This document shows positions 133 to 25,145 of a DNA stretch of 36,328 bases, piece by piece. The notes under the pieces were generated by a model. That model was not told the origin of the DNA and did no database searches. It was given only the letters and a program-made list of their open reading frames with translations. This DNA is from an uncultured Methanosarcinales archaeon (GTDB lineage Archaea > Nanobdellota > Nanobdellia > Woesearchaeales > GW2011-AR9): NCBI GenBank assembly GCA_964360675.1, contig CAYHXT010000003.1, positions 1 through 36,328 on the forward strand, read 5' to 3'. Numbering within the stretch: the first letter of the stretch is position 1; each line of letters begins with the position of its first letter. The translations under genes were made by a program, and so were the position numbers.

Positions 133-894
133 TTAAAGTAAGAACATAGAACTATGGAATCCACAATAATAAGAATACGGGGCGGTTTCCTTATTCATTT
201 TTGCAAAGAATACATATCCTTTCTCTAAAATATATTTCTCTTTTTGTAATTGTACGTTAACCGCCCAAGCAGTTTCTATCGCTTTTCCTTTAGCAAAAAT
301 AAAAAAAGTCTCTGTCTTTTTATCAATAATCTCTTTAGTCCTGCTTTTTATAATTTCTATATTATCTTCATTTTTTATAAAGATAGTGATCTCTTTCCAC
401 TTAAAAATTAAATCTTCAAATTCATTATTTAAGTCTTCCTGACAATATTTCTGTTTCTCTTTAAGTTCAATCAAATGATCTAATATGGGCCTTATAACTC
501 CTTCAGTAACCATTTCAATTAGTCTTAATCCGATTAATTTTTTGTTTTTGTAGATTTGGTCTTTAATCTCTTTTACTTTATCGATTTCCTTCTTTTGTTC
601 TAAATTAATAATGTACAAACCAGTTCTTATAACATCTATGCCCCAATGATTTTTTAAAATTCTTTTGAAATCGGTGTAAATGGATTTTTCTGCTAGTTTT
701 TTTAGGGTATAAACTTCATCCTTGTTTGGGACAAATCCATATTTACCTTCATTATTTTTATTCCTTATGATCCCATATACTTTTTCTAATTGCGGTTTAC
801 TTAATTTTACAAGAATTCCCGATGCGACTAACCATTTAAGAAACTCGGGGAGAGTCAATTCAATCGCTTTTTGAATTATTTCTTCAATTACCAT
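133..894 (-). CDS. Hypothetical protein, 253 aa, possible C-terminal Alba-like domain
   Basis: Long ORF in visibly AT-rich DNA that overlaps the upstream 83-aa ORF. ETFFIFAKGKAIETAWAV resembles the Alba/Rpp20 beta2-alpha2 motif. Confidence 0.7.
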   Translation of the reverse strand: MVIEEIIQKAIELTLPEFLKWLVASGILVKLSKPQLEKVYGIIRNKNNEGKYGFVPNKDEVYTLKKLAEKSIYTDFKRILKNHWGIDVIRTGLYIINLEQKKEIDKVKEIKDQIYKNKKLIGLRLIEMVTEGVIRPILDHLIELKEKQKYCQEDLNNEFEDLIFKWKEITIFIKNEDNIEIIKSRTKEIIDKKTETFFIFAKGKAIETAWAVNVQLQKEKYILEKGYVFFAKMNKETAPYSYYCGFHSSMFLL

Positions 895-1135
895 TTTCCT
901 TTAACTCTTCTTTTTCTCTTAGAAGTTTACTTATAGTTAAAGGAGTAGTATCTACAATTTTAAGAGAACCGGGAATCAGTGAAGCATTTTCTAATTTAAT
1001 CGGTCTTCGGGTCTCATTCGAAATTAATGGTTCATTGAGTAAATAATCTATAATAACTCCTTCTTCATTAACCTCAAAATTATAAGCTCTTAATAAGAGT
1101 TTTTTTTCTTCAACCCCTATCTCTTCGTATTCCAT
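884..1135 (-). CDS. Small hypothetical protein, 83 aa
   Basis: ATG start with TATA-like TTTATATA (minus strand) at about 1162-1169. Overlaps the downstream ORF by 11 nt. Confidence 0.65.
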   Translation of the reverse strand: MEYEEIGVEEKKLLLRAYNFEVNEEGVIIDYLLNEPLISNETRRPIKLENASLIPGSLKIVDTTPLTISKLLREKEELKENGN

Positions 1136-1231: not shown

Positions 1232-1261
1232 AAAAAAAAAACGTGGCCGTTTCCGGCCACG
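1232..1261 (-). terminator. GC-rich hairpin plus U10 tract (intrinsic-terminator architecture)
   Basis: Minus strand reads CGTGGCCG-GAAA-CGGCCACG followed by 10 T: a perfect 8-bp stem with a GNRA loop. Confidence 0.75.
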
Positions 1262-1284
1262 AAAAAGGTGGTAAGGTGTGTGGA

Positions 1285-1410
1285 CTAAGAAATAGCGTAA
1301 TAGCAATCAAAATCATCTATGAACATCTGCTTGTTCTGTTTCTGCACCGGCTCTTCGTACTTTTGCATAAGGTACAAAATCCTGTCTCGTATATTGTTTA
1401 TGTTATTCAT
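1285..1410 (-). CDS. Small peptide B, 41 aa (MNNINNIRDRILYLMQKYEEPVQKQNKQMFIDDFDCYYAIS)
   Basis: Hand translation. Strong SD GGGGGTGG upstream and TAATG stop/start overlap with peptide A. Confidence 0.6.
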   Translation of the reverse strand: MNNINNIRDRILYLMQKYEEPVQKQNKQMFIDDFDCYYAIS

Positions 1411-1535
1411 TATAACCACCCCCCGCTTAGTTGGTAATCAAAAGAATCTTCCTTGGTCATGACCGTTTTTTGGGTCAGTTCCCGCACCTGCCTTTCAAAC
1501 AATTGTTGAATTGTTTCTGTCGTAAGATCCATCAT
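1410..1535 (-). CDS. Small peptide A, 41 aa (MMDLTTETIQQLFERQVRELTQKTVMTKEDSFDYQLSGGWL)
   Basis: Hand translation. SD GAGGTGG 8 nt upstream of the ATG, coupled to peptide B. Confidence 0.6.
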   Translation of the reverse strand: MMDLTTETIQQLFERQVRELTQKTVMTKEDSFDYQLSGGWL

Positions 1536-1642
1536 GGTTTATACCACCTCGTTTTTTTATCATAAAAATGAGGTCAAAAGGACAATGTCCTTTGCTCACC
1601 TCGTTTTTTGATAAAGAATTGATGTTAGGATTTGTTTATATA
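1536..1642 (-). promoter_or_regulatory. TATA box and structured 5' leader of the two-peptide unit
   Basis: TATATAAA at 1642-1635 (minus). A 13-mer containing the SD is duplicated at 1545-1557 and 1597-1609, with a complementary copy at 1564-1574 and an inner hairpin at 1577-1593. Confidence 0.55.
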
Positions 1643-9953: not shown

Positions 9954-12500
9954 ATGAAAGTAAAAAAAATAGTGAAATGTATTCTTTCAGCTGGTGCTGG
10001 AGCAACTATGCTTAGCGCAACAGTGATGGGTGCAATGGCTGCAGATTTGAGCAACTACCCGGACATGTTAGTTCAAGATGGTGTCTTTAACGGTCTTCTG
10101 GTAGTAGGAGAAAATGCCGCTGCTGTAGACAATTTAGCAATGACTGACATTGCCGCAAGCATGAAATATAAAGCATCTGATGCAGGCGCTACCGTCAGTG
10201 TCGAAGGCGACGCTTTTTTAGTGAAAGCAGGAACTGACGAGTTAGAATTCGGCGAAGCTATAGGAACTACAACTCACGGAGTATTGGATTTCGTAGATGG
10301 GGATGATTTAGCTGCTTTGGCAGATGCTACTTTGTCCAGTTCAAAAGGATCTTTCAACTACGAACAGTTCATCCACTTTGATGGCCCTGTTGTGAACACA
10401 ACTTACGTGGAAGATGATGACGATGTAACTGCTTTGTTCGTGAAAGTTCCGGATAACGCTGAATTTGCCAGATATGAAATGAACTTTCTGGAAGCAGCAA
10501 AATCTGATGTGGATTCTTCCTCCAGCTATAAATTGGATGATTTGGAAAAGAAGTCTGTAACTATGCTGGGAAAAACATACAACATCGTTCAGGCAAGAAC
10601 GAATGCAATTTCGGCTACCCCGCAAATTACATTGACGTTGATGTCCGGTTCTGCTTCAGACCAAATATTGGAAGGGGAAACCAAAACGTTTACTCTTGAT
10701 GGTAAAGAGTACGAGGTAAGTTTAGTTTTCACCAATACGGCTGACCAAGCTAAATTTACCGTTAATGGTGAAACAACTCCGGTAATGGATGAAGGAGATA
10801 CTGAAACACTCTCTGATGGTGTCGTACTTGGATTGAGCGAAGTATTGTACCAAGACTATGCCGGCGGGGTTCACCAAGCTGAGTTTTACTTGGGAGCTGA
10901 CAAGTTAGAATTACAGGATGATAACTTCAACCAGACTACAGCTACTGCCACTTCATCAGACGACTTAAAAGTCAATGATGAAACTATCGACGGAGCAGCT
11001 GTAACTATATTTGGTTCAGTAACTACTGCCTGGAGTGCAACTGCTGACGGAGAGTTAGAAATTGACGACATCCAAGTCAACATGACCGCGCAGGACGATT
11101 ATTTCATAGCAGCCGGTGAAACTTTGTTAGGTCAGCCAGAACTTGAAGAAAAAGAATTGGTTTTTACTGAAAACTGGGACCTGCGTTTTGAAGGGATGGA
11201 TCAATCTGTCCTTACAGACGAAATAAAAGTTGCAGATCAAAGCGGTGAAAAGGAATATTGGTTGACTTTTACTAACTTGAAAGGAGACGTAATAAATATG
11301 CCTTTAGCTTATGCAACTGGATCAGATGTGTTGTTAGGTAACCAAGACGATAGGCTTGTTTTGAACAAAACTTCAATCCAAGATGAACAGTATTTCATCT
11401 TGAACGATGATACTGATGAAGATTCAGTTTCAAGTGTAGTTCAATATAAAGGAGCCGATAAGTTTGGCGCATCAGATCCTAAAGCAAAGTTCAAAATTTT
11501 AGGAACGGGAGAGACTGTTGAACGTCCTATCACCTTTGGAGCAGGTCAAAACGGTGCTACCTTTAACTTGAAGTTAGGAGGAAATACCTATGGTTTTGCC
11601 AACGCAACTGCTGTTGGTGATGGAGCAGCGCCAGTTGGTGGCGGTAATGTTGGTGCTGACGATTGGAACATTACCATCTTAAGCGGACATGCAGCTACTG
11701 CATTAATAACTCCTTCAAGAGCTTATAATGCGCAAGTGCAAGATTACGTAATTGCTAGAGGCGGAGCCAAAATTTGGATATACACCAACAGTACTCTTAC
11801 TGGTGAGGTACTATTCAACGTAAGTTTGATAGATGCTGATGCAATTGATGACAGAAACGCTGTTCCGTACCTGATAAAAGGGTACAACATCACTGCTGCA
11901 TCTAGTGAAGTTGACTTGTCTACAGAAGTTGGATTCGATTTGGTGAATACTACCTTAGTATCCCCGCAAGACGACGACGACAATTCCTACGGTTACTCAG
12001 CTAACGGAGCATGGGTAAAAAGGAATAGTCCTAGCGGCGGCGGATCCAGCGCAGACACATTGACCATTGAATGGCCGCACAAAGAAAGATTGCCAATGGT
12101 GTACTTGACCTCTGGAGCAGTAGCTTCGAGCACATCTGCCGGCGGCGACCTGAAAGCAGTAACCTTTGTTGATGCCACCAAGCTGGACAGTGAAGTAGCT
12201 GACGTAAAAGCGCAGAACTTAGTTGTTGTAGGAGGACCTTGTGTCAATACCGCAGCAGCTGAACTGATGGGAAACCCAGCTGATTGTGCTGAAGGATTTA
12301 CTCCTGGAAAAGCACGTGTTAAGTTGTTCGAGCATGCTAACGGCAACGTGGCTATGCTTGTAGCAGGTTACAGCGGCGCTGACACCAGACTAGCTGGTAA
12401 AGTAGTAGCTAACAGAGCTAGCGAACTTTCCGGCAAGGAAATGGTAGTAGAAGGCACAACCTACGCTGACGCAAAACTCAGCAAAGCAACGACTAACTAA
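9954..12500 (+). CDS. S-layer protein (Methanococcus/Thermococcus S_layer_N/S_layer_C type)
   Basis: MKVKKI signal peptide; LVVGENAAAVDNLAMTDIAA; C-terminal NLVVVGGPCVN...LVAGYSGADTRLA; acidic, with many NxS/T sequons; strong SD. Confidence 0.9.
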   Translation: MKVKKIVKCILSAGAGATMLSATVMGAMAADLSNYPDMLVQDGVFNGLLVVGENAAAVDNLAMTDIAASMKYKASDAGATVSVEGDAFLVKAGTDELEFGEAIGTTTHGVLDFVDGDDLAALADATLSSSKGSFNYEQFIHFDGPVVNTTYVEDDDDVTALFVKVPDNAEFARYEMNFLEAAKSDVDSSSSYKLDDLEKKSVTMLGKTYNIVQARTNAISATPQITLTLMSGSASDQILEGETKTFTLDGKEYEVSLVFTNTADQAKFTVNGETTPVMDEGDTETLSDGVVLGLSEVLYQDYAGGVHQAEFYLGADKLELQDDNFNQTTATATSSDDLKVNDETIDGAAVTIFGSVTTAWSATADGELEIDDIQVNMTAQDDYFIAAGETLLGQPELEEKELVFTENWDLRFEGMDQSVLTDEIKVADQSGEKEYWLTFTNLKGDVINMPLAYATGSDVLLGNQDDRLVLNKTSIQDEQYFILNDDTDEDSVSSVVQYKGADKFGASDPKAKFKILGTGETVERPITFGAGQNGATFNLKLGGNTYGFANATAVGDGAAPVGGGNVGADDWNITILSGHAATALITPSRAYNAQVQDYVIARGGAKIWIYTNSTLTGEVLFNVSLIDADAIDDRNAVPYLIKGYNITAASSEVDLSTEVGFDLVNTTLVSPQDDDDNSYGYSANGAWVKRNSPSGGGSSADTLTIEWPHKERLPMVYLTSGAVASSTSAGGDLKAVTFVDATKLDSEVADVKAQNLVVVGGPCVNTAAAELMGNPADCAEGFTPGKARVKLFEHANGNVAMLVAGYSGADTRLAGKVVANRASELSGKEMVVEGTTYADAKLSKATTN

Positions 12501-23531: not shown

Positions 23532-24209
23532 ATGGCCAATAATTCTAAAATCATAGTCGGATTGGATGAAGCCGGCAGAGGCCCGGTTCTCGGCCCGTTA
23601 GTCATGGCAGCTCTGGCTATAAAAGAGGAGAATATCAAGAAGTTAGAATGGATGGGTGTCAAGGACAGCAAAAAGTTAAGTGCAGAAGTGCGGGAAGAAT
23701 TATTCGAGCCGATACGAGAAGTAGTAGAGGATTTTCGCATTGAGATGATTGAACCGGATGCGATTGATTTATCGGTAAACGGAAGCGAAACAAACCTGAA
23801 TTGGCTGGAAGCAGATACTTCTGCGCGGATGATATCAGAAATGGATCCAGATACCATCATCGTCGATTGCCCCAGCCCGAACATCAAAGCCTATAAGGAA
23901 TATTTCGCTTCCCGCTTAAGTAAAGCGGTGAGGGAGAAAGCGGAACTGATAGTCGAACATAAAGCGGATGTAAATTATATTGTGGCTTCTGCCGCTTCTA
24001 TTGTAGCGAAAGTCATCCGCGACCGGCATATCGAACATATGAAGACTGAGATCGGAGTAGATTTCGGCTCCGGCTACATGAGCGATCCTAAGACGCAGGA
24101 ATTTCTGAAGAAGCATTATAAGACGCATCCGCAGCTGTTCAGGAGAAGCTGGAAGTCGTATAAGAATATGGAAGATGCGGAGAAGCAGAGAAGTTTAGGA
24201 GAGTTTTGA
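23532..24209 (+). CDS. rnhB: Ribonuclease HII
   Basis: GLDEAGRGPVLGP, VKDSKKL, IIVD, KAD, AASIVAKVIRD, GSGY and C-terminal PIP box QRSLGEF. Confidence 0.97.
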   Translation: MANNSKIIVGLDEAGRGPVLGPLVMAALAIKEENIKKLEWMGVKDSKKLSAEVREELFEPIREVVEDFRIEMIEPDAIDLSVNGSETNLNWLEADTSARMISEMDPDTIIVDCPSPNIKAYKEYFASRLSKAVREKAELIVEHKADVNYIVASAASIVAKVIRDRHIEHMKTEIGVDFGSGYMSDPKTQEFLKKHYKTHPQLFRRSWKSYKNMEDAEKQRSLGEF

Positions 24210-24341: not shown

Positions 24342-25145
24342 ATGGTTGTTTTTGAAGGCGTCACCAAAGAAAGTCTGCAGAAATTAAAAGGATTTTCCAA
24401 TGAGAAAGTTAAAACCATTTACGAAGAACTGCGCCTGAAGAAAGCCGGCGTTACTTTAGTTTTATACACTTCCGGAAAATTATCGGTGCAGGGGAATGCC
24501 GAAGAAGTGCAAAAGGCAGCGAAAGAATTGGAGAAGCAGGGGATCGGCAAACAGGTCAAATCAGAACTTTTCCGCAAGGAAAGCGGCTGGATCATCGGCA
24601 CTGATGAATCGCTTAAAGGAGATACTTTCGGCGGATTGGTAGTTGCCGGAGTTAAAGCCGACAACCTATTGCGTGAAAAACTGGCAGAATTAGGCGTGGC
24701 GGACAGCAAGACTTTGGCCGACACGGAAATACTAGTGATGGCGGAAAAGATTAAGAGATTAGTCCCCTGCGAGGTGCGCAGTGTTCTGGCAGATGAATAT
24801 AACCGGGAGAAAAATGTCACCACGCTGCTTAACCGGCTCCATCAAGAATGCGCGAATTACCTTCTTCCCGGAAAGCACATTGTGGATAAATTTCCCGGAT
24901 GCAGCGTAGGCGATGTGCAGGAAGAGAAAGCTGAATCAAAGTATGTAGAAGTGGCCGCAGCTTCAATCTTAGCCCGGGCGGGAGCTTTACAGCAGCTGGA
25001 TTATCTTAGTGCGCTGGCAGGATTCAGGATACCTAAAGGCAGCACCCACGTAAAGCTGGCTTTATTTGAGCTGAAGGAGCGCGAACTGAATTTTGCGAAA
25101 TTTGTAAAAATTGATTTTAAAAACGTTAAAGAATTTTTGAAGTAG
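24342..25145 (+). CDS. rnhC: Ribonuclease HIII-like protein
   Basis: N-terminal TBP-like segment LVLYTSGKLSVQG; GTDESLKGDTFGGL, VADSKTL, IVDKF, KAE (the HIII-type fourth carboxylate), VAAASILAR and IPKGS. Confidence 0.85.
   Translation: MVVFEGVTKESLQKLKGFSNEKVKTIYEELRLKKAGVTLVLYTSGKLSVQGNAEEVQKAAKELEKQGIGKQVKSELFRKESGWIIGTDESLKGDTFGGLVVAGVKADNLLREKLAELGVADSKTLADTEILVMAEKIKRLVPCEVRSVLADEYNREKNVTTLLNRLHQECANYLLPGKHIVDKFPGCSVGDVQEEKAESKYVEVAAASILARAGALQQLDYLSALAGFRIPKGSTHVKLALFELKERELNFAKFVKIDFKNVKEFLK

Follow-up and report, generated by a model that had tools for sequence, protein, structure and literature searches.

A conserved pair of translationally coupled microproteins in Woesearchaeales-type archaea: a candidate clamp-associated factor with a PIP-box-like tail

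What do two very short, overlapping reading frames near the edge of an archaeal contig encode, and what might their products do? The frames lie on the minus strand of a stretch of 36,328 nucleotides (nt) from GenBank assembly GCA_964360675.1 (contig CAYHXT010000003.1, positions 1 to 36,328; hereafter the window), the source assembly being that of a small archaeon, with 927,741 bases and a completeness of 88%. A sequence-only reading had described the unit as self-contained and unannotated, encoding two coupled peptides, here called A and B. All the features that it named were present on the minus strand where it had placed them (Table 1), and its picture of a self-contained unit with a promoter of its own, two Shine-Dalgarno (SD) sequences, translational coupling, a terminator, and two small hydrophilic proteins was upheld. 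The word "unannotated" was appropriate only in part, as both exact sequences are present in a public protein collection and their relatives carry the name "hypothetical protein". From its sequence, the unit is best read as a separately transcribed operon of two genes encoding two microproteins, each of about 40 residues and unrelated to one another, and it holds more interest than a generic pair of small open reading frames (ORFs). To the earlier description we add a tail of B resembling a PCNA-interacting protein (PIP) box and an element in the 3' untranslated region (UTR) resembling an anti-SD sequence.

The 652-nt intergenic stretch holding the unit was searched in 40 related genomes. The part comprising A, B, and the terminator aligned in all the genomes of the genus (15/15), with a nucleotide identity of 71 to 93%, and more weakly in four other genera of the family; in each of the 20 aligned loci, both frames were open. 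Within the 15 genomes of the genus, the variable columns at codon positions 1, 2, and 3 numbered 15, 9, and 32 out of 41 for A and 13, 8, and 33 out of 37 for B, neither frame contained a stop, and the pooled ratio of nonsynonymous to synonymous polymorphism (pN/pS) was 0.19 for A and 0.16 for B. As a control, ratios were also obtained for the five remaining frames of each ORF; these ranged from 0.30 to 2.37, and the frames carried 7 to 59 stops over the 15 sequences. Only the two named frames were free of stops. Insertions and deletions in B were multiples of three, that is, whole codons. The distribution of variation over the codon positions, the low pN/pS, and the stop-free frames together indicate that A and B are protein coding and under purifying selection. 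The frames and the SDs, on whose persistence in relatives the sequence-only reading had staked its proposal, turned out to be conserved, and so did the stop/start overlap. That A and B are translationally coupled protein-coding genes we regard as close to certain.

The pair was found well beyond the genus. A profile of A retrieved 124 protein clusters, almost all of 41 to 42 residues and described at most as "hypothetical protein", and with the B profile, searched against all representative proteins, 73 were obtained, mostly of 30 to 55 residues. A scan of species-representative genomes (Woesearchaeota/Nanoarchaeota metagenome-assembled genomes [MAGs]) yielded 68 loci, in 65 of which A was followed by B; two of the three loci lacking B were weak, truncated matches to A. 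The genes overlapped by 4 nt (ATGA) in 50 of the 64 distinct loci and by 1 nt (TAATG, the arrangement of the window) in 11. An SD-like hexamer was present between positions -16 and -3 relative to the start of A in 60 of these 64 loci and an SD-like sequence between -20 and -3 relative to the start of B in 63, while a TATA-like sequence stood 30 to 75 nt ahead of A in 50 out of 62 loci; in the 20-locus alignment, the TATA box and the SD of A were invariant. Among 301 genomes drawn from the phylum, 96 carried A in one or two copies each (one of the 96, G270, is unpublished), and in the window's own family it was single copy in 35 of 36 genomes. The pair belongs to the single-copy core genes of this family and has weaker relatives in other parts of the order. 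The length of exactly 41 amino acids (aa) given for both peptides in the sequence-only reading was correct for the window's copy but is a coincidence there, as elsewhere A has 38 to 45 aa and B 27 to 68 aa. Two kinds of longer matches were set aside. Of eight longer relatives of A, the six that were read are upstream-extended ORF calls without a conserved extension, and a 1068-aa match to the profile of B (P0128) was judged spurious, since it is a repeat protein matching only the first helix of B.

The two proteins resemble neither each other nor any described family. Comparison of A with B by hhalign gave a probability of 1% over four aligned columns, which rules out paralogy and leaves nothing of the loose likeness between the peptides that had been noted earlier. 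No relatives of either were found in Pfam, NCBIfam, PADLOC, or PHROGs, profile searches of the PDB returned chance-level matches only (E of 0.16 or higher), and the ESM Atlas contained no usable match. A has the consensus MVDLTTxTIxxLFExQVRELTxRT...KEDxFDYQLSGGWL, with near-invariant D3, I9, T21, Q35, and W40 in 103 sequences; AlphaFold2 modeled it as one helix (residues 6 to 35) with a low-confidence tail (predicted local distance difference test [pLDDT], 75.1; predicted template modeling score [pTM], 0.43). The conservation of this tail is due in part to the SD of B, which is embedded in the codons for Ser-Gly-Gly-Trp (1427-1416). In the variants SGRW and SGEW, the purine-rich SD is either retained or shifted downstream, and W40 and Q35 persist whatever the arrangement of the SD.

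In B, an N-terminal helix (NIRDRILYLMQKYEE in the window) is followed by a variable linker and the C-terminal sequence KQMFIDDFD. Across the family, the first helix reads MNMKERIxYLLxKYE, the linker differs in length, and the conserved K-Q-T-F-[IL]-D-[DE]-[FY] precedes a short variable end. The AlphaFold2 model of B consists of two helices (pLDDT, 79.0; pTM, 0.35), and the fact that both A and B, when modeled alone, are bare helices of low pTM suggests the need for a partner. What the partner of B might be is hinted at by its tail. The PIP motif is QXXhXXaa, with Gln at position 1, Leu, Ile, or Met at position 4, and an aromatic residue at position 7, and archaeal clamp clients typically carry it at the C terminus (PMC4929162). 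The pattern Qxx[ILMV]xx[FYW] was present in 70 of the 72 representatives of B and ended 0 to 17 residues from the C terminus, which is the terminal or flexible placement of a PIP motif; the window's copy, Q28-M-F-I31-D-D-F34, satisfies positions 1, 4, and 7. The native clamp clients of the same genome also end in PIP boxes, namely Fen1 in QKGLKNFF, PolB in QTGLGKYF, and RNase HII in QRSLGEF, and five representatives of B stop at motif position 7, as this RNase HII does. Of these clients, PolB (28023-30533) and the RNase HII with QRSLGEF (23532-24209) are encoded in the window and Fen1 on contig C14 (L089, 1171-2223). The window has two adjacent RNase HII genes, and the second paralogue (24342-25145) lacks a PIP box.

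The likeness to a PIP box was then examined by co-folding B with PCNA. A PCNA gene turned up in 9 out of 12 genomes of the genus, and the PCNA and B of a relative, G012, were used. Against a pass mark reached by 58 out of 80 complexes with solved structures and by 2 out of 110 mismatched pairs, the pair scored an ipSAE (interaction score derived from predicted aligned errors) of 0.74, 0.73, and 0.76, compared to 0.01 for the best control; the runs agreed in at least 63% of the contacts, and the pLDDT of the partner was at least 50. The contacting residues of the G012 B were 30 to 41, QNKQTFIDDYDC. On the side of PCNA, the contacts were M39, A42-L46, P124-L126, Y223-P224, I240, and A242-N247, falling in domain I, the interdomain loop, and the C-tail, i.e., the PIP site. 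The interdomain connecting loop and the C-tail of PCNA are the parts described as recognizing partners in one study (PMC10506467). The co-fold supports a likeness of the modeled pair to a PIP-PCNA complex rather than demonstrating binding.

The second addition concerns the 3' end of the unit. The SD-complementary sequence CACCT was present within 60 nt past the stop of B in 48 of 63 loci, compared to 574 of 14118 background windows (4.1%), and in loci with a longer B it lay inside the coding sequence of that gene. In the folded transcripts (n = 47), CACCT paired with the SD window of A with a mean probability of 0.41 and with that of B with one of 0.15, the total paired probability being 0.70. 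The element might thus pair with the SDs of its own operon, mostly with that of A, and so throttle translation or stabilize the mRNA. Past it, a perfectly paired, GC-rich stem of 6 bp or more with a T-rich tail followed B in 28 of 62 loci (0.1 expected by shuffling), the stem sequences differing between lineages. The loop of this terminator contained a TATA-like sequence in 10 of the 28 loci with a strict hairpin. Loops enclosing the TATA box that serves Sua5/YrdC, the gene that comes next, are seen, e.g., at L050 (about 1111-1140), L035, L040, L041, L065, and L084, and this overlap of terminator and promoter is unusually tight.

On these grounds we propose to see in A/B a constitutive factor, specific to this lineage, that associates with PCNA and is tethered there by the PIP-like tail of B; to this modeled role we give about an even chance. 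The two proteins would be made in a fixed ratio through translational coupling, and the N-terminal amphipathic helix of B would pair with the long helix of A. The C-terminal motif of B would dock, as in the model, in the PIP pocket of the sliding clamp. An A/B heterodimer would in this way ride on the clamp, with the A tail, FDYQLSGGW, as its other conserved surface. By occupying the PIP site, A/B could alter how readily PolB, Fen1, and RNase HII reach the clamp, competing with them or, through the tail of A, serving as an adaptor. A more far-reaching version, which we put forward as speculative and rather unlikely in its entirety, is that of a near-universal, lineage-specific two-subunit "clamp rider" of Woesearchaeales-type Nanoarchaeota, in which B is the tether, by way of a degenerate C-terminal PIP, and the invariant FDYQLSGGW tail of A reaches a further partner, combined with an mRNA-intrinsic closed-loop throttle in which a 3'-UTR copy of the 16S anti-SD sequence pairs with the 5' SD and limits translation of the mRNA.

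Several observations weigh against this proposal. The motif of B is a noncanonical, PIP-like one, since a second aromatic residue at position 8 is mostly absent: the position is aromatic or Leu in only 15 of the 72 representatives, and it is Asp in 23 of the 70 that bear the motif and in the window's copy (D35). PCNA was not found with PF00705 or PF02747 in the 88%-complete assembly, which does not imply its absence; this was the reason for using G012, whose B is 90% identical to the window's B, so that the modeled pair is that of a relative. The alignments used for the co-fold were built by ourselves, that of PCNA having only six rows, and as PIP-PCNA complexes have already been solved, the pass may reflect the memory of the model. 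The predicted pairing of the SD with the anti-SD follows trivially from their complementarity. Positions 1200-1700 of the window were found in 20 sequencing runs, all of DNA and mostly from groundwater metagenomes, with no RNA run among them. Lastly, the conserved neighbors of the pair, Sua5/YrdC and ribosomal protein S8e, have no tie to replication.

These neighbors bear on other explanations as well. Directly downstream of the pair on the same strand came Sua5/YrdC (PF01300, ~188 aa) in 57 of 65 loci, with one ORF intervening in 3 others, and S8e lay within two ORFs upstream in 35 of 63, both sets of counts having been made by eye from tables. This arrangement, like the noncanonical position 8 of the motif in most copies, speaks for A and B being a real coupled heterodimer whose acidic-aromatic motifs at the C termini would bind a partner other than PCNA, e.g., the Sua5/YrdC t6A enzyme, the ribosome, or a host or symbiont factor, a reading with which the evidence for coding and coupling agrees exactly as it does with a role at the clamp. 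We hold it to be possible, though on the unlikely side. The co-fold of B with PCNA passes well above its control, with contacts that are exactly the conserved motif, and the adjacency of Sua5 can be explained without any functional tie. The unit ends in a terminator of its own, and Sua5, which looks leaderless, has a separate TATA box some 25 nt ahead of its ATG, which makes A/B a separate unit. The overlap of terminator and promoter described above could alone preserve the adjacency. In the window, moreover, two genes are inserted between A/B and Sua5. The same order of ORFs, hairpin with T-run, and Sua5 would suit an attenuator in which the ORFs are leader peptides controlling the downstream gene, the more so as Sua5/YrdC uses threonine, A is rich in Thr (6 of 41 residues), and the SD/anti-SD pairing could serve as the alternative structure. 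This we consider very improbable: purifying selection over the whole length and the near-invariance of non-Thr residues (D3, I9, Q35, and W40) are unexpected of a leader peptide, the family of B retains a specific C-terminal motif, and Sua5 is set apart both by its own TATA box and apparent leaderlessness and, in the window, by the two inserted ORFs. A third idea, that A/B stands in for the C-terminal SUA5 domain missing from the 188-aa, YrdC-only neighbor or is a small KEOPS subunit, was dropped, the gene order being unlike that of a split gene.

A chance slightly below that of the attenuator attaches to A and B being precursors of a ribosomally synthesized and post-translationally modified peptide (RiPP), with the N-terminal helix as the leader and the C-terminal part as the core. 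Both are small enough to fall below the usual gene-caller cutoffs, and B combines a conserved N-terminal helix with a variable extreme C terminus, but no radical-SAM, YcaO, lanthipeptide, or other maturase was seen in 247 flanking ORFs (129 downstream and 118 upstream; at up to 65 loci, the nearest two per side with a length of 70 aa or more). The putative core motif is, besides, the most conserved part of B, the C terminus of A is nearly invariant, and A/B is, as noted, part of the single-copy core of the family. Slimmer again is the prospect of a small toxin-antitoxin or defense module, as might be suspected from an overlapping two-gene unit with small proteins and a strong promoter. The pair occurs once, at the fixed housekeeping locus S8e ... 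A/B ... Sua5/YrdC, in 35 of 36 genomes of the family, it has no PADLOC or PHROG match, and no relatives were found in viral contigs (0 of 39 candidate stretches), which makes a toxin-like framing unlikely; the remark of the sequence-only reading that the hydrophilic peptides are not classic membrane type I toxins agrees with the finding that neither has a membrane segment. That the conserved stretch is a noncoding RNA in which the ORFs are incidental has next to no chance. Its hairpins and SD/anti-SD complementarity are indeed conserved, but the codon statistics contradict such a reading, as variation falls on third codon positions, a pN/pS of 0.16 to 0.19 is confined to the two named frames, and indels are of whole codons. 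Searches of the whole window for Rfam families (gathering threshold) and for tRNAs (ARAGORN) were negative, and no Rfam match was obtained in 1100-1800 at a permissive setting or in 10 related loci at the gathering threshold.

Table 1. Positions of the A/B unit, its signals, and neighboring genes in the window
Feature	Positions	Strand	Remark
Upstream promoter module	1632-1750	minus	motifs and TATA box
TATA box, TATATAAA	1642-1635	minus	read directly
Leader insertion	1564-1602	minus	imperfect hairpin 1602-1570 and T5 run
SD of gene A, GAGGTGG	1550-1544	minus	8 nt ahead of the ATG at 1535
Gene A, 41 aa and TAA	1535-1410	minus	open reading frame
Purine-rich SD of gene B, GGGGGGTGG	1424-1416	minus	inside the A codons for Gly-Gly-Trp
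TAATG stop/start overlap of A and B	1412-1408	minus	ATG of B and TAA of A have one A in common
Gene B, 41 aa and TAG	1410-1285	minus	open reading frame
PIP-box-like motif of B, Q28-D35 (QMFIDDFD)	1306-1329	minus	motif reading
Anti-SD-like 3'-UTR element, CCACACACCTTACCACCT	1265-1282	minus	two CACCT
GC hairpin, CGTGGCCGGAAACGGCCACG	1261-1242	minus	GAAA loop; stem, then T10
T10 run	1241-1232	minus	directly after the hairpin
Ribosomal protein S8e	2168-1788		window
LonB	4445-2544		window
Sua5	from 76		runs past the edge of the window

The promoter of the unit contains three motifs of the CACTGGACA type (1749-1741, 1738-1730, and 1664-1656), the last of them within CCACTCCCGCACTAGACA. The module CCACTCCCGCACTGGACA, with a TATA box about 13 nt on, recurs in the genome (C5:13598, C7:3140, C31:1216, C49:4620, C64:3706, C51:5886, and C11:13900), where it precedes a tRNA, a stretch resembling a noncoding RNA, ORFs of 60 and 96 aa, restriction-modification genes, and an integrase, and all genomes of the genus carry it in multiple copies. 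It may serve as a common strong promoter or regulator site. One of the ORFs with this module is conserved and has about 56 to 60 aa (...KKWEVSI...TKYKVTRRI...; C5:13650-13830 and L004, 823-993). It sits between S8e and A/B in some relatives and may be another unannotated small protein. The idea of a tightly regulated system found no support. As for the leader of about 77 nt, it is present in the window but peculiar to this genome: an insertion of roughly 50 nt, which duplicates AAAAAACGAGGTG and with it the context of the SD, is absent from the other 19 aligned loci, whose leaders would be about 20 to 30 nt long. The minimum free energy fold of the leader is -22.8 kcal/mol, its hairpin has a GUGA...UGA arrangement that looks K-turn-like, and a look-alike of the hairpin follows another TATA box on contig C11 (about 12019-12050).

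Further observations concern the surroundings of the unit. A DUF4190 gene on the opposite strand lay immediately upstream of the pair in 16 loci. The genes separating A/B from Sua5 in the window are two overlapping ORFs of 83 and 253 aa without a family match (133-1135, minus strand), an insertion seen in this genome only, the nearest relatives being without it. The LonB of a related MAG (L057, 53-3325) carries an intein with a LAGLIDADG domain, and that of the window does not. At no fewer than nine sites of the genome, on contigs C1, C4, C10, C13, C15, C18, C30, and C39, there is an element that begins GAAATCGACCGCCACCAGTCAATAGA... and contains an inverted repeat; it could represent a small mobile or repeated element.

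Annotation routinely overlooks genes whose products have about 40 residues or labels them "hypothetical", and here two such genes behave as part of the core set of an entire family of archaea that are ultra-small and depend on a host. No earlier description of the pair was found in the literature on small PCNA-binding proteins of archaea, DPANN, or Woesearchaeota, supplements excluded. Few non-core interactors of the archaeal clamp are known, namely NucS, NreA, and the Thermococcales inhibitor of PCNA (TIP) (PMC4929162). If B binds PCNA, as in the reading that we prefer, it would be a new member of this non-core interactome and the first for DPANN-type archaea in the literature searched. The anti-SD of the 3' UTR would be a compact case of SD masking across a whole archaeal mRNA, and a terminator enclosing the TATA box of the next gene shows how tightly units are packed in genomes of roughly 1 Mb.

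How A/B, as a putative clamp-associated pair, relates to systems already described can be seen from several comparisons. In bacterial translational repression or coupling by RNA structure, an intramolecular anti-SD masks the SD. CACCT(C) is likewise complementary to an SD in the same transcript and predicted to pair with it, but in A/B the anti-SD is in an archaeal 3' UTR, about 260 to 300 nt from the SD of A and just before the terminator. The archaeal PIP clients Fen1, PolB, RNase HII, NucS, and NreA (PMC4929162) resemble B in that its C-terminal motif starts with Gln, has a hydrophobic residue at position 4 and an aromatic one at position 7, and models into the pocket of PCNA with its interdomain loop and C-tail. 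B differs from them in having no enzymatic or DNA-binding domain in its 27 to 68 residues, in position 8 being usually Asp rather than aromatic, in being coupled to a second microprotein, and in having no sequence relation to any named family. TIP is a single, nonessential protein of 64 aa found in Thermococcales only; its N terminus carries a putative PIP, a partial PH-like domain is likewise putative, and it was proposed to occupy PCNA and so block the interactions of PolB and Fen1 (PMC4929162). Like A/B, it is small, lineage restricted, and devoid of an enzymatic domain. A/B, in contrast, is a two-gene helical pair of Woesearchaeales-type Nanoarchaeota with a C-terminal motif, the extreme N-terminal PIP of the TIP type being absent from B, and is by description set apart from TIP. 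The eukaryotic p21 and PAF15 are small, disordered proteins whose main known contact with the replication machinery is a PIP box; they compete for the clamp and are regulated by proteolysis. It is from p21 that the PIP motif originates (PMC4929162). Both are eukaryotic, longer, single-chain, and controlled by proteolysis and have no homology to A/B, and what B would share with them is that of a small protein relying on its PIP box.

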